A stretch of DNA of 64,000 nt from an uncultured Acidobacteriota bacterium (GTDB taxonomy: Bacteria; Actinomycetota; Acidimicrobiia; Spongiisociales; ZC4RG35), in contig CAVZVJ010000011.1 of the NCBI GenBank assembly GCA_963778755.1, positions 10,226-74,225 on the forward strand, read 5' to 3'. Numbering within the stretch: the first letter of the stretch is position 1; each line of letters starts with the position of its first letter. The notes under the pieces were generated by a model. It did no database searches, was not told the origin of the DNA, and saw nothing but the letters and a program-made list of their open reading frames with translations. The translations under genes were made by a program, and so were the position numbers. This document shows positions 6,048 through 39,509 of this stretch, piece after piece.

Positions 6048-7254
6048 GAAATGCTGATTTGGTCCAAACCGCAATCGAAACAGGCTGCATGGTCGCGCTG
6101 ACCACACCCATCCAACCCTCGACCACCCGGTCGGCGTCGAGTTGATCCCGCAACGATCCCGCGAACCCATCCATCACTCGTTGCGTGTCGTAGTGGGAAC
6201 GGTTGAACCGACGATCCACCCAACCCTGGACCCGTCTCCGCACCGGGTTGAATAGCGCAGCCACAGCCAACGTGGTCGCCGCCACCACCAACTCGGACTG
6301 GTCCGGAAGCAATGTGGTCAACCAGGTGACCCCGGCCACATACACCGCTGCTAGAGCCACCACCACGACCGTGTATGAGACAGTTCGAGCGATGATCCGA
6401 TCGATCTCATACAAACCGTGGCGGGTAATAGCGATCGCAATCGCGGCGGCGGCCCCGATTCCCCACAACGAGAGAATCACCAAAATCGGGTCTATGCCAT
6501 GGTCTCCGATAAGCCCTTCGAGAAGGTTTCCCAGGACGAAAAGGATGGGGAAGGTCGCGAAGGCAGCAAAGAACCATCGGAACTGCTGTCTCTCGGTGCC
6601 ACGCGAGTGGCGAAAGCGGACAAAGAGGTCGACGATCGCAAGCAGGAACAGCGCAGCCATCACCCAACCGAGAGCCTCGACAATCGGATCGAGGAACTGG
6701 TCGGAACCAGGTATGTCGAATGGATTATTGGGTGGCGCGACATCTCCTTCTACAGGACCCGGTCTCGTCGCGCGCGCAGCAGCGTTCAGCACGGCAACGG
6801 GCAGAATCGCTCGTATCACCAAACGTCCTGCGCTGGTGGTGGCAGACCCCGTCGGATAGAGCAGCACCAGGATCACGACCAGCGTCACCGGAACCATCAC
6901 CACCCAAGTCGTCAACCAGGCAGCAAGGCCGCCCAGTGGGAGTGATCCCGGCACCGTGACCAGCGCATAGCGGCCGTAGGCACTGGCAAAGGCCCCCAAA
7001 CCCACGGAGAAGGTGATGCCCGAAAGGATCCAGCCGATGCGATTGGAGGGGCGACTGGAAACCAGCAGAGCTCCGACGAGGCCGAATCCAACGAATGCGG
7101 AGAAGAAGATGAGCCCCTCCAACACCGTCGACGGCGGATCCGGTGGCGAGACTGACGGGTTGAGAGGAGTCAACACAGCCGCCGCCACCATGCCGGCCAC
7201 TCCTAGCAGCCACATGGTCCAACTCAGGAGCGCAGCGCGGCGCCGAGACATCAA
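6019..7254 (-). CDS. Polytopic membrane sensor-like protein ending in the N-terminal part of a GAF-like domain
   Basis: About 9-10 TM segments, RPSNRIGW, ERQQFRWF, LYEIDRII, PVRRRVQGWVDRRFNRSHYD, TMQPVSIAVW; clear paralogue of 41311..42456. Confidence 0.85.
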   Translation of the reverse strand: MMSRRRAALLSWTMWLLGVAGMVAAAVLTPLNPSVSPPDPPSTVLEGLIFFSAFVGFGLVGALLVSSRPSNRIGWILSGITFSVGLGAFASAYGRYALVTVPGSLPLGGLAAWLTTWVVMVPVTLVVILVLLYPTGSATTSAGRLVIRAILPVAVLNAAARATRPGPVEGDVAPPNNPFDIPGSDQFLDPIVEALGWVMAALFLLAIVDLFVRFRHSRGTERQQFRWFFAAFATFPILFVLGNLLEGLIGDHGIDPILVILSLWGIGAAAAIAIAITRHGLYEIDRIIARTVSYTVVVVALAAVYVAGVTWLTTLLPDQSELVVAATTLAVAALFNPVRRRVQGWVDRRFNRSHYDTQRVMDGFAGSLRDQLDADRVVEGWMGVVSATMQPVSIAVWTKSAFRNDSETIAS

Positions 7255-7385
7255 ATTCCGCCCGAGATCTCACTGGCGAGAGCCCACATCCCGAAGACAG
7301 CAATGAGGCAGACAGCCAACGTCCGGGTCAGCCCTGAGATTGTCCGTGATGTCGTCAGGGCTCGACTCCGTCATTCATCGGCGGC

Positions 7386-7417
7386 AGCATGCCATTGCTT
7401 CGTTACGTAACCGCAAC
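7386..7417 (-). promoter_or_regulatory. 11-bp direct-repeat site E (degenerate first repeat) plus -10
   Basis: GTTGCG-gttac-GTAACG-N9-CATGCT upstream of 6019..7254. Confidence 0.45.
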
Positions 7418-7454
7418 CGAGCTGAACGAACGGGGGAAGCTGCGACCGGTTCAT

Positions 7455-10260
7455 ATGCCGTTCCGTAATCTCAAGTTGCGCAAATCTCGTAACGCACCAA
7501 TATCTCCCCATCACAGGCACAACCATCGACATCAGGCTCCTCGGGCCGCCGCGGATCGAGAAGGCCGGAACGTCAATCGACGTGGACACCAGGAAGGCGA
7601 TTGCGCTCCTCGCCTACCTGACCGTCGAGACGACTGCCACGCGCGACCGGCTGGCGAGCCTCCTGTGGCCCGAGGCCAACACGGAGCGGTCACGAGCCAC
7701 CTTGCGGCGCACGCTCTCCTCGCTGCGCACCGCGGTCGGCCATGAGACAGTTACCGCCGACAGGATCGGCGTGGCTCTCGCTGAAGGCACGCCAAGTGAT
7801 ATCCGCACCTTCACCGACGAGCTCGAAGCGACCTACCACCACGACCATGACCGGGGCGACGTATGTGGTCTTTGCATTCCCCATCTCGAGAAGGCCACCG
7901 TTCTCTACCGGGGTGACTTCCTCGAGGGTTTCTCCATGCGAGACGCCGCCGAGTTCGAGGACTGGGCCCGCACCGTCACCGAGTCGCTTCGGATTCAAGC
8001 CGGGGTCGCCTTTCAACGTCTGGCCATGGCAAGAGCAGCCTCAGGCGACTACTCGGGCGCCCTCGGCGCTGTCCACAACTGGATCGAGCTCGATCCACTC
8101 CACGAGCCCGCCTACCGCCTTCTCATGCTGCTCAACGCCTGGGATGGCGACCGGCCGGGAGCGGTCGAGGCGTACCGGCGATGCGTCGGAGTTCTCGACC
8201 AGGAGCTTGGAGTTCCGCCCCTGGAGGAGACCACCGAGCTCTACGAGGCAATCCTCGATGAGGACCTCCCACCGGCGCCTGGTGTCAGGAGAAAGGTCAA
8301 GGCACAGGCGGTAGCAGTGGCGCAACGTGAGGCCATGATCGACCGGGAGGAGGAGACGGCCACTCTGCTCCAGGCCATGGACAGCCTCTCCGTCACAGGC
8401 AACGTGCTGGTTATCGCTGGGTCGGCATGGATGGGAAAGACCCGTCTGCTCGAGGAGTTGGGCCCGGCCTCGAGGATCTCGGGTCGCTCGGTGCTCTCTG
8501 GTCGCGCCTTCCGAATGGAACAAGATCTGCCTTTCGGGGTGGCGGCCCAACTACTCCGATCCGCCGCACCCCTGATCGACAGAAACCTCGAGTTGCTGCC
8601 CAACTGGGCCATGGGCGAGGTGGCGCGGCTGGTCCCCGAAATTCACCAGGCACCGGTGTCGACCGAAAGCGCCGATCCCTTCGGCGAGCTTCGTCTCTAT
8701 GACGGCGTGCACACGGTGCTCAGCGAACTGGCACGAATCCATCCGATCGTGATCATGATCGACGATGTGCAATGGCTTGACCCAGCGTCGGCGGGTCTCG
8801 TCTCTTACATCGCCAGCCGCCTCGAAACGTCGCCGTTGCTGCTCGTCCTCGCCGTGAGGTCAGGGGAACCACTCTCGGAGGTGACGAGCGAGCTGATCTC
8901 GGCCGCCGGTACCCACATCGACTTGCAGCCACTAACCATCGACCAACTGAGCGACGTTGCCGGCACTCTCGAAGCCGCCACGGAACTTCACCGGAGGACG
9001 GGAGGGATCCCACTTTTGGTGACCGAAGAGTTGTCGGACCGAGGCGACCACGGCCCCGAAGGCCTGGGGATGGTGCGCTACATGGAGTCACGCTTGAGGG
9101 ACATCAGCGACCTGGGTCGACAGGTGGCCACTGCGGCAGCGGTGCTCAACGGTGTCTGTGATGCCGCCTTGCTCCGAGAGACCAGCGGCCGCACCGAGGA
9201 CGAAGTAGTCGACGCCGTCGAGGAGTTGATTGCCGTCGGCTTGTTGCGGGAGCTGCCCGATGGAGACGGCCTGGCATTCAACCTCGATGCCCTGGAGCGG
9301 CTCACCTACGAGTCGACATCCCTGATCAGACGCCGGCTGCTCCACCGGCGTGCGGCATCAGCGCTGGCGGAACGCTCTCACTCCGCATCCGACCCCCGTC
9401 TCGCCGCTGCAGTGGCATTCCAGCTCGAGGGGGCCGGGTCGAGTGAGAGTGTCGAGTGGTACCGGCGCGCCGCCGACCTCTCGCGGGCCGTGTACGCATA
9501 TGCCGAGGCTCGGAGTCTCTACGAGAAGGCCCTCGGACTCGGTGACGCCGACCCCGCTGCAATCCATATGGCGCTTGGGGAGATCGCCATGTCAGTCGGC
9601 GAATACGACCAGGCCCTTCAAGAGCTCAACGGCGCCGCGGCCCTTGCTGACGGCGATCAGCTCGGCCTTGCCGAGCACCGTTTGGGTGAGGTTCAGCGTC
9701 TTGTTGGCCGGTTCCCCTTGGCGGCCGAGCATTACGAACGGGCTTTGGCCCTCCACCCGCAACCTGCGGAGGTGCATGCCGATTGGGCCCTGTTGTTGCA
9801 AAGGACGGGCGATGTCCCCGGAGCCCTCGAGCAGGCCGAGCTAGCTGTTGCGGCTGCCACCACCACCGGGGATCCGAGACAGCTCTCGCGAGCCCAGAAC
9901 ATCCTCGGAGTTATTTCGTCGGACCCGGACACCGCGATGGAGCATCTCGAAGAAGCAATGAGGCTCGCCGGCGAGGACGACCTGCTTCGAATGGCAGCCC
10001 TCAACAACCAGGCGCTGCTCCATACCGCGGCCGGGGAAGATCAACCAGCAGTGGAGTTGATCGAGGAGGCCATCCAGATCGCGGCCAGGACCGGTAATCG
10101 CCACCGGGAGGCCGCTTTGCACAATCATCTCGCCGATATTCACCACAGAGCAGGGCGGGAAGAGGAAGCGGAGCAACAGCTGATGCAAGCCGTCTCATTG
10201 TTCGCCGACGTCCACGCCGGAGGGCAGGAACCTGAGGTTTGGCTCCTCCGCCAGTGGTGA
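7455..10260 (+). CDS. SARP/BTAD transcriptional regulator with STAND-type AAA ATPase and TPR domains (start uncertain)
   Basis: IRLLGPPRI...TRKAIALLAYL wHTH, LYRGDFLEGF and DPLHEPAYRLLM BTAD, Walker A GSAWMGKT, Walker B IDDVQWLD, TPRs, C-terminal EPEVWLLRQW. Coding continues upstream of GTG 7582 with no in-frame start; ATG 7455 or TTG 7476 joins if one extra C near 7508 is removed. Confidence 0.85.
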
Positions 10261-33524: not shown

Positions 33525-35039
33525 TCAGACTTCGCTGGCGACCGATCCTTCGTCGATCTCCAATGCGGGACCGGTGAACTCCGGATAGGCGAGGACGCCC
33601 ATCTCCGGGATGTCCAGCCCGGTCAATTCCTCCTCCTCCGAGACCCTTATCCCACCCTTCATGAATATGTCCTGGAGCTTCCAGAAGAGGTAGGCGATGC
33701 CGAACATGACGGTCCAGATCACCACTACCCCTGTGAGCTGGGCCAGGAATTGCCCGGTTCCGCCATGGAGAAGCCCGATGATCTCGACCGGTTGCCCGGC
33801 GCTGTCCACGGCCAGGTTCCATCCGTCGCCGTAGCTGCCATCGGGGAAGATCCCGACCGCAAGCACACCGAAGGTGCCGCAGACACCATGAACCGCAATA
33901 GCGCCGACAACGTCATCGATTCCCCGCTTCTCGATGAAGAGAATCGCTTCCACAACCAGAACACCGGAAATGATGCCGATCACGGCTGAAGCACCTGGGG
34001 TGACGAAAGCGCAGGGGGCCGTGATGGCCACCAAGCCGGCGAGCATCCCATTCATCATCATCCCGGGATCTGGTTTCTTGCCCCGGAAGTACATGCAATA
34101 GAGCATGGAAACGACCGCTCCGAAGGCGGCTGCGATTGCAGTGTTGGCCGCCACCGTCGCGAACTGGACGTCCGTGGCCGCAAATGTCGAAGCGGCGTTG
34201 AACCCGAACCATCCAAACAGGAGGATGAACGTCCCCAACGCAGCCATCGGGATGTGATGGCCCGGAATGGCATTCGGCGTGCCATCGGCTTTGAACTTGC
34301 CGATCCGGGGACCGAGGACCAGGGCGCCAGCCAGCGCCGCCGCCCCACCCATTGCGTGAACTACTCCGGATCCGGCGAAGTCGGCATAGCCAACGCCCCA
34401 CCCCACCGAGCTCCAGAGTCGGTTCAGCCAGCCTCCACCCCAGGTCCAAGCGCCGAAGAGCGGGTAGTAGATCGCCCCACAGAAAAGACCCCACCCAACG
34501 AAACTCCGCCACTTCCACCGCTCCGCCATCGATCCGGTGGGAATGGTCGCCGTGGTGTCCATGAAGGCGGCCATGTAGAGGAAGAACCCGAGCACTGCCG
34601 GGGTGATTGCCTTGCCGGCGAGCAGGAAGCCACCCTTCCACAAGAAGGTCCAGTCGCCGGATCCGATGAGGGCGCCGCCCAGGGCCGTGTCGTATCCGAA
34701 GTCGAATCCGGGGAGGACATAGGAGAACCCGCCGAACATGAATGCATAGCCGACCAGGAAGTAGGCGACGAACCCCAAACCGAAGATTGCGAAGTTCGTG
34801 GAGACCACATGCGCCGCATGCTTGGCACGGGAGAACCCGGTTTCCACCAGCGCGAATCCGGCCTGCATGAAGATCACCAGGACCGCCCCGATAACGATCC
34901 AGAGCAGGTTCATCTGCTGACCCATGGCGGTCACGGGGTCGGTGTCCTGGGCCATCGCGGGTGCCGCCACTCCCACCACCATCAGGCCAATCAAGCCGGC
35001 GATTACTGACAGCTTCCTGACCCGGTGTCTCGGTCTCAT
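33525..35039 (-). CDS. amt: Ammonium transporter
   Basis: FMQAGFALVE, DFAGSGVVH and AIAVHG (twin His), ILLFGWFGFN; AAGGGAGG RBS before ATG 35039. Confidence 0.95.
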   Translation of the reverse strand: MRPRHRVRKLSVIAGLIGLMVVGVAAPAMAQDTDPVTAMGQQMNLLWIVIGAVLVIFMQAGFALVETGFSRAKHAAHVVSTNFAIFGLGFVAYFLVGYAFMFGGFSYVLPGFDFGYDTALGGALIGSGDWTFLWKGGFLLAGKAITPAVLGFFLYMAAFMDTTATIPTGSMAERWKWRSFVGWGLFCGAIYYPLFGAWTWGGGWLNRLWSSVGWGVGYADFAGSGVVHAMGGAAALAGALVLGPRIGKFKADGTPNAIPGHHIPMAALGTFILLFGWFGFNAASTFAATDVQFATVAANTAIAAAFGAVVSMLYCMYFRGKKPDPGMMMNGMLAGLVAITAPCAFVTPGASAVIGIISGVLVVEAILFIEKRGIDDVVGAIAVHGVCGTFGVLAVGIFPDGSYGDGWNLAVDSAGQPVEIIGLLHGGTGQFLAQLTGVVVIWTVMFGIAYLFWKLQDIFMKGGIRVSEEEELTGLDIPEMGVLAYPEFTGPALEIDEGSVASEV

Positions 35040-35149
35040 CGAACGTCCTCCCTTATCTGGTTGAGATGATGTCAACGAGCGTAAAGAAGGGCTGTTAATC
35101 GTCTTGAAACGCAATATTACGAGTGTGGATCAGATACCTGACAGCTTTC

Positions 35150-35734
35150 TTACAAGGCGGCAGGGAGTGACTCCAGGAGATAACCCCGGGATCTGATCGT
35201 CCGCACGGTGAGACCCACTGCTGGCAGACGCTGTCGGAGACGGAGCATGTGGGCGTCGAGGGCGTTGCGTCGCGGGCGATCCATCCCAGCCGACGGCCAC
35301 GCCGACTCGATCAGCGCCTGACGAGTGACCACCGCATCGGGACGCGAGATCAAGGCCGACACCAGACGGGATTCGAGCGGCGAGAGCGACACCCACTCAT
35401 CTCCGAATCTCAGGATCCCTTCGGGCTCGAGTTGTGGAGCGGGATGAGCTCGCTGGGCCACCTCGGCCTGGCTGGATCTGCGTCGCAGGGATTCGAGACG
35501 GGCCTCGATGTCGACCGCCGATGCGGGGACTCTGATCCATTCCTCGATGAGGGTGAGGTCGAGAGGTGGCGGCCCTGCTTCGACCAGCAACAAATGGGGC
35601 TGTCTGGCTGCCAGCAAGGAGGCACGTCTCTCCTCGTCGCCTGGCCAACGGATCAAGGCCACGTCCACGTCGGAACGCTCCCAGGGTCGTGTTTCACCCG
35701 TGTTTCCCCGATGTGAAGGATCCGCGACGGCCAA
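35150..35734 (-). CDS. OmpR-type winged-helix regulator with atypical N-terminal domain
   Basis: VSLSPLESRLVSAL, RNALDAHMLRLRQRL, IRTIRSRGYLL; no acidic receiver pocket. Confidence 0.8.
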   Translation of the reverse strand: MAVADPSHRGNTGETRPWERSDVDVALIRWPGDEERRASLLAARQPHLLLVEAGPPPLDLTLIEEWIRVPASAVDIEARLESLRRRSSQAEVAQRAHPAPQLEPEGILRFGDEWVSLSPLESRLVSALISRPDAVVTRQALIESAWPSAGMDRPRRNALDAHMLRLRQRLPAVGLTVRTIRSRGYLLESLPAAL

Positions 35735-35760
35735 ACGGTCGAAGACCTGCCCGCCAAGCC

Positions 35761-36381
35761 TCAGGCGATATGGGCGCCGTGGCGAACGGCGATGCTGAAT
35801 CGCGAGACCCGGCGCCGTCGAGCGTGACGCCCTGAGACCCGTGTCGCCGCCGCATCCGATTTCTTGGGCACCAACACCAACGAGACCGCTACACCGGCAG
35901 CGAGACTCGCGAGCACGAGGGGAGCCCGAAGGAAGGTCAGGACCAGCCCGACCGAGGGAATGTGGAAGACGGGGCGACCGACAATGTCTGAGTTCTTCGG
36001 ATACCAGATGTCCTTCTCCTGGTTGTTGTCGCCGAGAAGCGTGAATCCTGCCTCACCGGACCCGCCAATGATCCGATGGATCAAGATCAGGTCGGAAGCG
36101 ATGTCATCGTCAGGCACCCGGTAGGCGACAACGTCCCCTGGCCCGTACTCGGCCTCTTGTCGAACCAGAACCAGGTCGCCCGGTTGGTAGGTGGGCTGCA
36201 TGCTGGTCCCCCGTATCACGACGTAGGTGAGCGAGCCTCCCCAAATCGTGGGGCGGAGGAAGGCGAACCATCCTGCTGCGAGGATCAGAGTCACCGTCCA
36301 GACCAGGAGTCGACGCAAGAGATGGCCTCCACCTTCGGGAGGTGAGGAGACGGGACGAGCGATGACGAGGGATCCGGTCAT
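35761..36381 (-). CDS. ER/archaeal-type (SipW-like) signal peptidase I
   Basis: GTSMQP catalytic Ser, GDLVLV, GDVVAY, ILIHRIIG (His in place of Lys), C-terminal TM. Confidence 0.85.
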   Translation of the reverse strand: MTGSLVIARPVSSPPEGGGHLLRRLLVWTVTLILAAGWFAFLRPTIWGGSLTYVVIRGTSMQPTYQPGDLVLVRQEAEYGPGDVVAYRVPDDDIASDLILIHRIIGGSGEAGFTLLGDNNQEKDIWYPKNSDIVGRPVFHIPSVGLVLTFLRAPLVLASLAAGVAVSLVLVPKKSDAAATRVSGRHARRRRVSRFSIAVRHGAHIA

Positions 36382-37109
36382 GGGCGGAAGGTCACTGTGA
36401 GTTGAGGGGCCTGGGCGAGATTGGCAAGGTTCTTGGACGAGTAGCGCACGTTGCGCGCGGTGCCCGAAGCCTCGACGTCATCCCTGATCATCCAGCCGTT
36501 GTTGGTGACACTGCCAGCCACAAAGGCGCTGACATCTGCGGTCACGTCCCAGCCGTTGACGTATCCGACTGCGGTGTTCTGACATCCGGGCCCGACCGTG
36601 ATGAACGAGGTGCGAGAACCGCTCGCCGGCTGGTTGGCGGCGTTCCACCCAACGGGCTGGGTGTTCCAGGTGACGCCGGCCTCGGTCCAGGCAAAGGTGA
36701 CTCTGAAGATGTCCTCGGTTCGGCAGACGCCGGGGATGGCCGATGCGTAGAGACGGAGTGTTCCCGAGATCACCGTTGCGCTCGATGGGATGGCGGGACT
36801 GCACTGTGTCAGGTCGAAACGAATGAAGGCACGGCGATTCGTCGTGGCGCCTGCCGACTGGACGTCCATGAAGGTGTCGGTGCCGTTGTTCTGAGTCAGA
36901 TTGTTGTGGTTAACCCAGGAGTCAGCGACCGTGGTCGACCCCGCGGCCCAAGCGGTGAGGGTGCAAGTGCGATAGACCGCGAGCGTCTTTGCCGTCACGG
37001 TGAGCGGTGCCGCAGACGCCGCGGTCGGCAGGAGCGCCAGAAGCAGGATGCCGATCATCGGCCATGAGGCGAAGCGTCTGCCTGAGTCCGACATCTCAAG
37101 CACCGACAA
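36378..37109 (-). CDS. Secreted DNRLRE/CBM96-like domain protein
   Basis: Signal peptide, ADSWV...RRAFIRFDL...GTLRLY...WTEAGVTWN...WDVTADV...NNGWMIR...APQLTVT. Confidence 0.75.
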   Translation of the reverse strand: MSVLEMSDSGRRFASWPMIGILLLALLPTAASAAPLTVTAKTLAVYRTCTLTAWAAGSTTVADSWVNHNNLTQNNGTDTFMDVQSAGATTNRRAFIRFDLTQCSPAIPSSATVISGTLRLYASAIPGVCRTEDIFRVTFAWTEAGVTWNTQPVGWNAANQPASGSRTSFITVGPGCQNTAVGYVNGWDVTADVSAFVAGSVTNNGWMIRDDVEASGTARNVRYSSKNLANLAQAPQLTVTFRP

Positions 37110-37470
37110 TCGTCAGATCGGTGGTCATCGCATTGGCGGCGGCGATCGGGCTTGCCAGGGTCACCAGGATCGAGCCACCGCCGGCGGGAACCGTTGCGGT
37201 GCCGCTCACATTGGTTACCCCGTTGCTCACCGTCAGGGACAGCGCCCCGTTGCCACAGGCGGCAGCGATATTGGAAACGGTGACCGAGACGACATTCGTC
37301 CCCGAAAGTGTGCGGACGATGGTGACGCCGTCGGCGTCACACGCCGTCACGGCTGCGTTTGCGCCTGCCAGGGTCTGGGAGCCGGAGGGCAGGTTCGCTG
37401 CCAACCCGGGCGCGATGGTGGCCACGATCGTTACGACCGCGGCCACCATTCCGATCAACCAGCGTCTCAT
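37096..37470 (-). CDS. Small secreted pilin/fibre-like protein
   Basis: Signal peptide, then AANLPSGSQTLAG...TAC, a second Cys, beta-rich; paralogous to 37492..37881. Confidence 0.7.
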   Translation of the reverse strand: MRRWLIGMVAAVVTIVATIAPGLAANLPSGSQTLAGANAAVTACDADGVTIVRTLSGTNVVSVTVSNIAAACGNGALSLTVSNGVTNVSGTATVPAGGGSILVTLASPIAAANAMTTDLTIVGA

Positions 37471-37491
37471 CGCGTGGTTCTCTCGATACGT

Positions 37492-37881
37492 TTAGCCCGA
37501 GATGACCAGGTGCACTCCGAGGACACTGGCGGCGCTTATGTTGGCCGCACTGAAGTCGGCGGTGAACGAGGTACCGGAGCCTGGCGTGGTGCCGGTCATC
37601 TCGCCGAGCAATGCGTTTGCCGTGCCGGTGAGACTGATTCTGTAGGGCTTGGTGAAGCAGCCGGCAGCCATTCCGTTGACGGTCACGACGCCGACCCGAT
37701 AGCTGGACCCAGCCACATAGGAGGTCGCATAGGTCACGGTCAGCGGGGTCGCCTGGCAGGCCGCGACAGTGGCACTGCCGGCGCCGAGGGTGTCCGTATT
37801 GACGGTAAGGCTGGCAGCGAGCCCGAAGACGGCACCAAATACCGCTCCAGCCACCAGCAGGGCGATCAAGATTCGTTTCAT
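37492..37881 (-). CDS. Small secreted pilin/fibre-like protein (first gene of the SipW operon)
   Basis: MKRILIALL signal, then AASLTVNTDTLGAG...AAC, a second Cys, beta-rich; AGGAAG RBS. Confidence 0.75.
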   Translation of the reverse strand: MKRILIALLVAGAVFGAVFGLAASLTVNTDTLGAGSATVAACQATPLTVTYATSYVAGSSYRVGVVTVNGMAAGCFTKPYRISLTGTANALLGEMTGTTPGSGTSFTADFSAANISAASVLGVHLVISG

Positions 37882-38016
37882 ACCACGTCTTCCTAGATCA
37901 GGGAACCTGTGTTCTATCGCCACGAAAAGGCGGAACCTTGAGTAGGTCGCCCGACCTCAATCGTCAGACAGCAAGGGACTTTTGGCATGCTCTGATGGCG
38001 TATCGTCCGGCCGGAT

Positions 38017-39509
38017 ATGGCCACCGAATCGTTCGATGTCGTTGTCGTGGGCGCAGGCGCCGCTGGATGCGTTGCTGCCGCCCGGCTCGCCGAGTCGAGC
38101 TCCCGATCGGTGCTACTCCTCGAGGCCGGTCCCGACCTCAGAGCGACGCCGACCCCAGAGATCGCGCGATGGATGGGGCTTTCCCAAGGACCACCACTGG
38201 GGTCTCCAATCCGAGCCTGACCGGAACGGTGCTGCCGCTCCTTTGCGGAGGGGCAAGCTCGTAGGCGGAACGTCCTGGGTAACGAGGTTTGTCGTCCACG
38301 GGTCCCCGGCCGATTTCAACGAATGGGCCGACTTAGGCAACCCGGGGTGGGGATTCGATGATGTCCTCCCCTATTTCAAGAGGATCGAATCCGACCTCGA
38401 CTTCGGCCACCAGCTCTGGCATGGGGACAGCGGCCCGATCCCGGTGAATCGCTATCGCGACTTGTCGTCCAGCGCCACGCTGTCAGCCGCGAACGAAGCA
38501 ATAGCGGGCGTGGGCTTCCCAGCGATCGACGACCACAATGCGCCTGGAGCAGTGGGCGTGGGGAGGATGCCGATGAGCTCTCGAGGCGGCTCCAGAGTGA
38601 GCGCTGCAGACGCCTACCTCCCGGTCGGAGCAACACCTCCCAGCCTGACGATTCGATCCGGGACACAAGTCGCGCGGATCCTCTTTCGAGGGGACCCGCG
38701 CTCGCGGTGTGGAGCTCGTCGACGGATCGATTATTGAGGGGGGTCATGTCGTGCTCTCCGCCGGTGTCTTTGGAAGCCCTTCGATCCTGCAGCGTTCGGG
38801 GATCGGACCTTCGGACCATCTGGGCACGCTCGACATTCCCATCCTGGTTGACCTCCCCGGCGTCGGGGCCAATTTCGGCGACCATCCCAGCTTCGAGCTG
38901 GAGTGTGAGTTCACAGGCGAGGCTCTGGAGGCCCCGATTCTCCATTCGATAGCCACCTTCCACAGCCAGATGACCTCGGCGAACGAGCCACCGGACCTGA
39001 TGCTGTGGGTGGCGGACCCGATTGCATCTCCAGGGGAGCCGCCGGCGTTTGGGGTCGAGGTGGTTCTGCTCAGGCCGAAATCGAGGGGGAAGGTGCTGCT
39101 TGGTTCAGCCGATCCGATGGATCAACCCCGGGTCTATCGGCCCGATCTGGTGGAGGAAGTCGACGTCGACCGACTGGCAGAGGGCTATGCGGTGGCGCTC
39201 GAAGTGGTGAATCGTCCGGAGCTCCGCGACGTCTGCCGTCCACTTGGCCCTGACGCCACGGATTCCGAAGCGATTCGCCAGGCGATTCGCGGTGACAGCT
39301 ACTCGATCCCGCATTTCGTCGGAACCTGCTCGATGGGCCCGGACCCAGATCAGGGCGCCGTCGTCGATTCATCGGGTCGAATCCACGGAGCCCAGGGGCT
39401 CAGTGTGATCGACGCATCGATCATGCCCACCGTGCCCTCGGGGTTCACTCACATTTCAACGATCATGATCGCCGAGCGCCTCGCCGAAAGAGTGGGCGCC
39501 TCCGTCTAG
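38017..39509 (+). CDS. GMC-family oxidoreductase (two apparent +1 frameshifts near 38166 and 38695)
   Basis: [14 protein letters not shown] / [23 protein letters not shown] / [26 protein letters not shown] spread over three consecutive frames. Confidence 0.85.

Follow-up and report, generated by a model that had tools for sequence, protein, structure and literature searches.

The donation of a beta-strand after cleavage by a Sec11/SipW-type signal peptidase is emerging as a general route to extracellular fibres in prokaryotes that have no outer membrane, and is used by TasA, Abp, threads, cannulae and Tafi. To our knowledge, all the characterised bacterial fibres that combine strand donation with a peptidase of this type belong to the TasA superfamily. 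In the chaperone-usher pili (FimA/PapA), an incomplete six-strand Ig-like subunit is completed by an N-terminal extension that pairs with the C-terminal strand in antiparallel orientation; the tip carries a lectin. Actinomycetota and Chloroflexota, the two phyla considered here, are monoderm.

Peptidases of the Sec11/SipW class process the TasA, Tafi and AbpX subunits (PMC11821415; 10.64898/2026.01.04.697558). In the Tafi operon of Haloarcula hispanica, TafA is the major beta-sandwich subunit, TafE a paralogous adaptor, TafC the tip protein, formed by an N-terminal donor strand and a lectin-like domain, and TafD a signal peptidase I that is required for processing and for fimbriae; Sec-dependent taf-like clusters occur in Thermococcales (PMC11821415). 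In Bacillus subtilis, the peptidase substrates of the tapA-sipW-tasA operon retain a conserved stretch where the mature protein begins; it acts as the donor strand, and the first strand comes from the accessory protein (PMC9674648, PMC10151520). The loci of the AbpX/AbpA bundling pili, found in archaea and some bacteria, encode a TIGR02228 peptidase along with a subunit, minor subunits and predicted tip proteins that vary (10.64898/2026.01.04.697558; PMC9245690). Here we describe a candidate fibre cassette from an uncultured soil bacterium, probably an actinobacterium to judge by most of its relatives, and compare it with these systems.

Results

The cassette lies on the minus strand of the window (the whole stretch of 64,000 nucleotides that was analysed) and consists of four genes read in the same direction, referred to below as A, B, C and the peptidase gene. 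The co-orientation and the overlapping or nearly adjacent arrangement of these genes, described in an initial annotation made from the DNA letters, agreed with the coordinates and spacing found by us. The features discussed in this work are the following:

37492..37881, minus strand: gene A, putative major subunit; open reading frame with an ATG start and a GGAAGA ribosome-binding site
37774..37815, minus strand: N-terminal tag of mature A, residues 23-36, ASLTVNTDTLGAGS, just past the predicted site GLA|A
37096..37470, minus strand: gene B, paralogous minor subunit of 124 amino acids, 31% identical to A
36378..37109, minus strand: gene C, secreted CBM96/DNRLRE protein of ~240 amino acids; Pfam CBM96, NCBIfam DNRLRE
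35761..36381, minus strand: dedicated Sec11/SipW-class (S26B, archaeal/ER-type) signal peptidase I of 206 amino acids; TIGR02228
35150..35734, minus strand: OmpR-type winged-helix regulator with a truncated receiver-like N-terminus; Trans_reg_C at residues 115-187

The genes of the cassette are tightly coupled. B begins 21 nt past A in the same frame, TAA plus seven codons separating the two coding parts, and the start of the peptidase gene overlaps the stop of C as ATGA. Two starts are available for C, of which the ATG at 37094, 1 nt past the stop of B, is the likely one, with the TTG at 37109, which would give a 14-nt overlap with B, as the alternative. A scan of positions 34900-38300 for promoters and terminators found none. 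The regulator is linked to the cassette in the three nearest relatives only (L001-L003), in two of which it lies 1.2 kb from the peptidase gene; we regard it as a neighbour, whose membership in the cassette is doubtful.

The peptidase has two hydrophobic segments and scored 64.5 bits against TIGR02228 (cut-off 51.85) over residues 28-169. Its closest relatives in the PDB were human SEC11C/A, and alignment with these proteins placed the catalytic residues at Ser60 (TSMQP/SGSMEP), His102 (IHRI/VHRV) and Asp118 (GDNN/GDNN), that is, the Ser-His(-Asp) residues and not the Ser-Lys dyad of LepB-type enzymes. A housekeeping LepB is also encoded, elsewhere in the genome. The proposal of a dedicated SipW-type peptidase of the Ser-His type was upheld by the TIGR02228 score, by the aligned Ser60 and His102 and by the separate LepB. 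The SipW equivalog model NF046067 gave 28.4 bits (cut-off 190), and, judged by these scores, the cassette enzyme shares its class with Bacillus SipW without being an orthologue of it.

As had been reported, A and B are two small secreted proteins with two cysteines each. We found that these cysteines, Cys42 and Cys75 in A, are invariant family-wide and that A and B are paralogous (31% identical, E 1e-6). The precursor of A has 129 amino acids, with a predicted signal peptide whose removal would leave a mature protein of ~107 amino acids, and the homologues of A mostly begin with MKR and have a Sec-like n-region. At least 408 homologues of A were found, every one unannotated, and the A/B family comprised 1753 cluster representatives (~1,750 sequence clusters); no literature on it was found. 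Neither A nor B matched any Pfam family at E<=0.1, including Peptidase_M73 (PF12389) and DUF1102, and among PDB sequences neither phmmer nor profile searches with A/B found anything relevant. When this 58%-complete genome was searched with the family profile, only A and B were recovered. The BLB8/JUQZ-1 secreted family (NF053514; bacteriocin/elicitor) was tried and rejected, as its score was 18.7 bits (cut-off 40) and the match spanned the signal peptide. Direct reading of the sequences showed that mature A, B and C are rich in T, S, A, G and V and have few charges, and that the C-termini are ISG in A and VGA in B, neither of which is an LPXTG sorting signal.

Gene C matched both CBM96 (PF24517; 74 bits, cut-off 26, E 1.6e-20, residues 58-240) and DNRLRE (NF033679; 84.9 bits, cut-off 34), in agreement with the DNRLRE-domain protein first assigned to the operon. 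CBM96 is a polysaccharide-binding module (PMC9971899). The protein has a signal peptide, the N-terminal tag and four invariant cysteines, and is devoid of the sandwich domain of the A/B type. A tree of C, examined for horizontal transfer between the phyla, kept the Chloroflexota sequences largely apart from those of Actinomycetota, and its deep branches had weak support. Disulfides between molecules, as in Ena, were considered and set aside: the even numbers of cysteines (two in A and in B, four in C), together with the covariation of Cys42 and Cys75, make intramolecular bonds more likely.

The mature parts of the three substrates all start with the pattern [AS]-x-L-x-[VL]-x-[ST]-x-x-L, next to predicted cleavage sites of the canonical small-x-A form, GLA|A in A and in B and ASA|A in C; the tag of B is ANLPSGSQTLAGA and that of C is APLTVTAKTLAVY. 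The strings AASLTVNTDTL, AANLPSGSQTL and AAPLTVTAKTL, in which a common pattern had been noticed beforehand, were found exactly as given, and the conservation of the pattern in the homologues of A, B and C from 29 loci of two phyla shows that the sharing is not due to chance. Among 144 diverse representatives, residues 23-47 were the most conserved stretch of the family. Conservation of the tag reached +13 and was followed by a cysteine at +19 (A, B) or +15 (C), which is more than a signal peptidase site would be expected to require. In variant cassettes the tag becomes ASLGG..SLG jointly in every co-encoded protein, and the third protein is replaced by a non-CBM96 one. Besides A and B, a search of the genome for more substrates with a loose regular expression gave hydrophobic noise only.

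The gene order A(1-3 copies)-B-C-peptidase was the same in each of the 26 related loci whose flanks were long enough. These loci come from Actinomycetota and Chloroflexota MAGs, and in every one of them the peptidase gene followed C. Wherever a locus extended far enough, a single copy of B stood between A and C. No further gene family was conserved near the cassette in the 29 loci, be it an anchor protein, a chaperone, an usher or a sortase. The relatives were mostly Acidimicrobiia or Actinomycetota, and when cultured hosts were sought in a second homology search, with a variant cassette of a single-contig genome as the query, all the named matches came from MAGs or metagenomes. The cassette, though undescribed, is widespread in soil lineages about which little is known, among them Acidimicrobiia, Limnocylindria and Dormibacteria.

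The core of A/B was confidently predicted by AlphaFold2 as a six-strand FN3/Ig-like sandwich, and in the monomer of A the tag was left unplaced (pLDDT <50). As a surrogate for a complex, the natural in-frame A-TAA-B was read through as one chain, with 11 in-frame paired rows from other loci in addition to unpaired rows. The cores of this fusion had pLDDT >90, both tags were disordered (<50) and the pTM was 0.44; no donor-strand complementation was seen in this model, which is a weak test, made with a monomer network, with the signal peptide of B as the linker and without coordinates. Two Foldseek searches against the PDB gave no match at E<=1e-3, the top matches being generic FN3/monobody domains (E 4e-3 to 0.1) and Ig-like domains of GH2 enzymes. 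TasA, AbpA, CanA, thread, Ena and the chaperone-usher pilins were all missing from the best 50 matches listed in each search, and the YadV chaperone (E 0.097) was the only match among them related to the chaperone-usher systems. The initial annotation had proposed a candidate TasA-like fibre and had suggested a Foldseek comparison with TasA and AbpA; this comparison, the Pfam and PDB profile searches and the FN3/Ig-like core all spoke against that name.

Direct-coupling analysis of the A/B family (Meff 264) recovered the core hairpins as well as the Cys42-Cys75 pair. Tag residues 26-36 were coupled with the C-terminal strand (columns 118-127) in an antiparallel pattern. Six of the top 65 couplings joined tag positions to columns 111-128, and four of these six, plus one just under the threshold, fitted an antiparallel ladder with i+j = 152-154; by our own rough estimate, made with no tool, ~2 such couplings would be expected by chance. 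The couplings found include the column pairs 26-127, 28-126, 32-121, 35-119 and 31-79 of the alignment. When the family was divided into two disjoint, shallow subsets (Meff 88 and 176), reproduction was partial, not every pair being reproduced, and single tag/C-terminal pairs recurred in one subset or the other at ranks 4, 6, 13, 18 and 48. These couplings point to docking of the tag on the C-terminal strand of the A/B sandwich, with cis and trans docking equally compatible.

Discussion

In our preferred reading, to which we give a probability of about 50%, this self-contained cassette would build an extracellular, sortase-independent protein fibre or matrix. Its layout, with a major subunit that has one to three copies in the relatives, a single minor subunit, a lectin and a peptidase, is what a sortase-independent fibre would need. 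In favour of this reading are the strict gene order, the peptidase encoded in addition to LepB, the long shared tag that changes jointly in the variant cassettes, the confident cores with unplaced tags and the couplings. Against it are the A-B fusion model without complementation, the lack of a known fibre subunit among the Foldseek matches listed, the shallow subsets of the coupling analysis and a neighbourhood in which no anchor protein, chaperone or sortase is conserved. Of the pilus first suggested for this locus, the sortase-independent layout is supported, and the TasA-like nature of the subunits is not.

According to this reading, A, B and C would be exported by Sec, and the membrane-bound Sec11/SipW-class peptidase of the cassette would cut each substrate after [small]-x-A, in the case of A presumably at GLA|A, exposing a conserved N-terminal segment of 10-14 residues, [AS]-x-L-x-[VL]-x-[ST]-x-x-L-G. 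The exposed segment would then add a further beta-strand to a six-strand sandwich of the A/B type, where it would run antiparallel to the C-terminal strand. This sandwich would most likely be that of the next subunit, a case of donor-strand complementation. Since C has the tag and no sandwich, docking in trans is favoured, and we infer it in preference to docking in cis for the subunits as well. A would polymerise head to tail, with B, in a single copy, as its adaptor or nucleator; C, because it has the strand and no acceptor domain, would cap one end with its CBM96 glycan-binding module, and the polymer would have the subunit order C-B-A(n). The basal subunit may be anchored via its still-uncut signal peptide.

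The three proteins might instead be a non-polymeric secreted set, which we consider possible, short of probable. The tag would then dock in cis and form strand A, the first of seven, in an FN3/Ig-like monomer, the sequence of the cleavage region would reflect peptidase specificity only, and the peptidase would control the timing or the release of the lectin and of the two small proteins of the surface or matrix. No partner is needed for the confident folding of the cores, and their best structural matches are monomeric FN3 domains, in which the A strand is N-terminal; however, AlphaFold2 put the tag in cis in neither run, though the remainder of the fusion had pLDDT >90. The couplings fit cis docking equally well, and the 11-residue linker together with the Cys42-Cys75 coupling could permit the return of the tag in cis, but C retains the tag without a domain on which it could dock in cis. 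The single-chain A-B model without complementation would also suit independent monomers; on the other side, conservation to +13 and further exceeds the expected need of a signal peptidase, and two to three copies of A, single B and C genes and third proteins that can be exchanged are what fibre loci typically show.

A surface layer or membrane-tethered coat seems improbable to us. Here the hydrophobic N-termini would partly be signal anchors, the juxtamembrane segment would serve for lateral packing or peptidase binding, and C would bind the cell's own exopolysaccharide, in keeping with the polysaccharide binding of CBM96 (PMC9971899), with the T/S/A/G/V-rich mature proteins of few charges and with a neighbourhood in which neither an anchor nor a sortase is conserved. 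The intact catalytic residues and the canonical small-x-A sites in all three proteins argue for cleavage, however, and the couplings between the tag and the C-terminal strand suggest strand-to-strand contact, not a membrane interface. Finally, it is very unlikely that the TasA/camelysin (Peptidase_M73) superfamily includes A and B as divergent members, because, although they share with it the class of the dedicated peptidase and a conserved segment at the mature N-terminus, they had no PF12389 match at E<=0.1, no hit in the profile search of PDB sequences and no TasA, AbpA, CanA or thread among the best 50 Foldseek matches listed in either search, their mature size is ~107 amino acids against the 163 mature residues of AbpX (10.64898/2026.01.04.697558), and their core is a six-strand FN3-like sandwich and not a jelly-roll (10.1101/2024.12.30.630787).

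A fibre built by this cassette would add an unrelated and much smaller subunit family with a glycan-binding cap to those already described. If confirmed, it would give insight into surface attachment or matrix building by these uncultured bacteria, and would provide a very small self-assembling building block. More tentatively, A and B could stand for a third class of donor-strand fibres coupled to a signal peptidase, independent of the others in structure, with FN3/Ig-like subunits of ~107 residues that are completed in trans, exchangeable lectin caps and the peptidase as the assembly gate. Growth would then take place at the membrane, where the uncut signal peptide would tether the basal subunit until the peptidase freed it for strand donation. 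If this were true, the cassette would encode a surface organelle that is common among the uncultured Actinomycetota and Chloroflexota of soil.

Comparison with known systems

The sortase-assembled pili of Gram-positive bacteria differ from this cassette in their LPXTG signal, which A and B do not have, and in their pilus-specific sortase, which is not among the genes conserved near the cassette in the 29 loci. The chaperone-usher pili share with it the six-strand Ig-like core, an N-terminal segment coupled to the C-terminal strand and a lectin; in contrast, they require a periplasmic chaperone and an outer-membrane usher, neither of which is conserved near the cassette. The Abp loci likewise bring together a subunit, a minor subunit, a predicted tip protein and a TIGR02228 peptidase, whereas their subunits are of the TasA superfamily, acidic and calcium-dependent, and the bacterial ones often have SLH or LPXTG anchors and sortases, which this cassette does not have. 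With tapA-sipW-tasA it has in common the bacterial operon, the dedicated archaeal/ER-type signal peptidase and the conserved segment at the mature N-terminus. However, TasA is a jelly-roll, while A/B are FN3/Ig-like proteins of ~107 amino acids, unrelated to it in sequence and fold searches, and the accessory protein is a CBM96 lectin, no TapA homologue being present.

The differences from Tafi are also several. Tafi is archaeal and its haloarchaeal subunits carry Tat signals, whereas the MKR start of A is Sec-like; TafD is extended by a further domain at its C-terminus and has four transmembrane helices; nothing here corresponds to the partner TafG or the anchor TafF; the Tafi tip is a laminin-G domain, in contrast to the CBM96 of C, which is also devoid of a pilin-like domain; and the DUF1102 family was not matched in the Pfam scan of A/B. 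On the other hand, both systems combine in one operon a major subunit, a paralogous adaptor, a protein made of a strand and a lectin, and a dedicated peptidase, both have a regulator nearby, and in both the subunits are Ig-like and not jelly-rolls. As a match of architecture only, the archaeal Tafi operon is the nearest working analogue of this cassette.

Gene organisation and distribution of the cassette

The four co-oriented genes proposed in the initial annotation were confirmed as a closely packed cluster on the minus strand at 35761-37881, in a host genome that is a 58%-complete MAG.

Genes of the cassette and its surroundings (window positions)
33525-35114, minus: ammonium transporter gene (amt), after the regulator and on the same strand
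35150-35734, minus: OmpR-type regulator, downstream of the cassette
35761-36381, minus: Sec11/SipW-class signal peptidase (cassette peptidase), its start overlapping the C stop in ATGA
36378 to 37094 or 37109, minus: gene C, starting at ATG 37094 (1 base past the B stop) or TTG 37109
37096-37470, minus: gene B, putative minor subunit, following A after TAA and seven codons in the same frame
37492-37881, minus: gene A, putative major subunit, ATG start with GGAAGA upstream; homologues likewise begin MKR
37982-39509, plus: GMC-family oxidoreductase, divergent from gene A, in three frames (38017-38220, 37982-38737 and 38709-39509)

When one genome per species was scanned, 29 loci were found, every one in MAGs of Actinomycetota (many of them Acidimicrobiia) or Chloroflexota (Limnocylindria, Dormibacteria and Chloroflexia). 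The order A (one to three copies)-B-C-peptidase was kept in all loci with enough flank (26/26), and clustering of all the ORFs of the surveyed loci revealed no further conserved neighbour, whether sortase, chaperone, anchor or glycosyltransferase. The regulator was not counted in the system because its linkage is confined to the three nearest relatives (L001-L003), two of which have it 1.2 kb away from the peptidase; the synteny of the regulator-amt pair in these three loci suggests that it may go with amt and not with the cassette. The two frameshifts in the oxidoreductase point to a pseudogene or an assembly error.

In the closest relative, L001 (A 96% identical; positions 6819-7503 and 8134-9380), C is frameshifted into two overlapping pieces and an insertion of about 1.2 kb separates the peptidase from the regulator; L002 has the same peptidase-regulator spacing. 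Two of the three relatives are labelled Acidobacteriota and one Acidimicrobiia, yet they grouped together with 100/100 support, so that the phylum label is probably wrong for at least one of them.

The A family is large, with at least 408 matches in 90% clusters; in 50% clusters, 1,753 representatives passed E<=1e-3 and 700 of them E<=1e-10, with few exceptions about 130 aa long. It occurs patchily, being present in 13 of 401 genomes sampled evenly across the phylum and absent from three genomes of the host's own taxonomic family, and the named sources among the homologues listed were all MAGs or metagenomes. In full-text literature searches, no paper describing the A/B family of these two phyla turned up.

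A shared N-terminal tag

A and B are paralogous, at 31% identity (E 1e-6), and C has the DNRLRE domain, both as initially annotated; C also matched CBM96. The CBM96 module spans residues 58-240 of C and is preceded solely by the signal peptide and some 24 further residues. A and B belonged to no family in Pfam and NCBIfam, their sole match, to the BLB8/JUQZ-1 model, being below threshold. All three proteins begin with a positive charge, a hydrophobic stretch and a predicted small-x-A site (GLA/A in A and B, ASA/A in C), past which lies a conserved segment, here called the tag (residues 23-36 in A), with the consensus [AS]-x-L-x-[VL]-x-[ST]-x-x-L and a Cys 19 residues past the cut in A and B and 15 in C. 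The same layout was found in 46 homologues of A, 27 of B and most of those of C across the 29 loci; thus, the common mature N-terminal pattern first read from the window is real and conserved. Among 144 diverse representatives, residues 23-47 were the best-conserved part of the A/B family, above every core strand. The two Cys earlier noticed in A and B proved invariant, as are four in C.

Most A homologues keep an N-A-S sequon around residues 88-94 (consensus SNASLGE), which could be a glycosylation site or merely a structural motif; the A of the window reads ANALLGE and has no such sequon.

Remoter cassettes retained an A-like protein and the peptidase and had other proteins in place of C, implying that the third protein is exchangeable. 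In these, all the co-encoded proteins carried ASLGG..SLG, showing that the tag co-varies within a cassette. Six examples (L037-L042, in genomes G390, G147, G313, G029, G252 and G106) bear non-CBM96 third proteins such as a 238-aa beta-rich protein, a T/S/P-rich one of 204 aa, or proteins with an internal A-like domain. The first hydrophobic segment of the L037 peptidase itself ends in WPASLGG.

The cassette peptidase

The initial assignment as SipW-type stood in part: the enzyme scored above the cut-off of TIGR02228 (archaeal/ER-type signal peptidase) but below that of the Bacillus SipW equivalog. Its best relatives among solved structures were human SEC11C and SEC11A, and Ser60, His102 and Asp118 aligned to the catalytic SMEP, HR and GDNN motifs. 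Elsewhere, the same genome carries the gene for a conventional LepB-type peptidase (160 bits), indicating that the enzyme of the cassette is additional to it and dedicated.

A further enzyme of this class was found in the same genome:
contig C2 (locus L030), 481-2691, minus: second archaeal/ER-type signal peptidase (65.7 bits) together with the secreted-protein gene before it

The peptidase (494 aa) has a C-terminal laminin-G/ConA-like domain fused on and directly follows the gene for a 208-aa secreted protein, which matched no family in Pfam, NCBIfam or PDB and whose N-terminus (...GSNAAFSATTDNTGDAWATGNLLLT) we take to resemble a TasA/camelysin-type SipW signal. Together with the cassette, this pair indicates that the host genome has two distinct modules of peptidase and substrate, which differ in their tags.

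Fold of the subunits and docking of the tag

AlphaFold2 (40-row alignment) modelled A as a six-strand sandwich at residues 48-127, with residues 20-30 scoring below 50. The natural in-frame read-through A-Q-TYRENHA-B was also folded as a single chain, using paired rows from 11 other in-frame A-B loci plus unpaired rows; both cores exceeded pLDDT 90 (pTM 0.44), and the tags (22-39 and 155-177) remained below 50. Foldseek searches of the PDB with either model gave nothing at E<=1e-3, the best matches being FN3 domains, monobodies and Ig-like domains of GH2 enzymes. Among the 50 best matches listed for each search there was no TasA, AbpA, archaeal thread, Ena or chaperone-usher pilin, and a profile search of PDB sequences was empty. 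The TasA-like subunits initially proposed were therefore rejected; as modelled, A and B are small FN3/Ig-like sandwiches forming a family of their own.

Mean-field direct-coupling analysis of 390 aligned A/B family members (Meff 264) recovered the expected hairpins (53-64, 56-63; 81-98, 82-95, 84-92), the pairing of strand 3 with strand 6 (83-126, 87-122) and Cys42-Cys75, showing that the method works on this family. Six of the top 65 pairs joined the tag to columns 111-128, about two being expected by chance on our own rough estimate. Pairs 28-126, 32-121, 35-119 and 34-118, with 26-127 just under the threshold, lay on one antiparallel diagonal (i+j = 152-154), and 31-79 was the second strongest coupling of all. 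Two disjoint subsets each retained part of this signal: 28-126 and 30-79 ranked 4 and 7 in A-type sequences (Meff 88), and 31-79, 36-125, 35-119, 34-118 and 26-127 fell at ranks 3 to 48 in B-type plus variant sequences (Meff 176). These couplings indicate that the tag, as a beta-strand, contacts an A/B-type domain along its C-terminal strand.

As co-evolution signals, they are equally compatible with docking on the tag's own domain or on that of a neighbour. The neighbour is favoured, because AlphaFold2 placed everything except the tag and because the tag is conserved in C, which has no A/B-type domain, although these points fall short of proof and the A-B complex, as approximated by a single chain, gave a negative result, its tags being left unplaced.

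Proposed assembly and comparison with known systems

The data establish the gene content, enzyme class, tag, synteny and tag-to-strand co-evolution, and what follows goes beyond these by inference. The cassette is very likely a module that secretes and assembles three tag-sharing proteins by means of a dedicated peptidase (probability about 0.85). The stronger proposal of a donor-strand polymer has, in our judgement, an even chance of being right. After Sec export, the cassette peptidase would cut each subunit at the small-x-A site, and the next A/B domain would receive the freed N-terminal strand beside its own C-terminal strand. A would form the shaft, single-copy B may act as adaptor or nucleator, and C, with its glycan-binding module, would cap one end. 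With no anchor gene among the conserved neighbours, the basal subunit might stay tethered by a signal peptide that is left uncut until the peptidase frees the subunit, which would account for a membrane peptidase being the single invariant partner.

The TasA/TapA/SipW and AbpX loci share this logic, but their subunits are jelly-rolls of the TasA superfamily (PMC9674648; 10.1101/2024.12.30.630787; 10.64898/2026.01.04.697558). Among working analogues, Tafi of Haloarcula hispanica comes closest: there, an Ig-like major subunit (TafA), an adaptor (TafE) and a tip protein composed of a strand and a lectin-like domain (TafC) are accompanied by a peptidase, TafD, needed both for processing and for fimbriae (PMC11821415).
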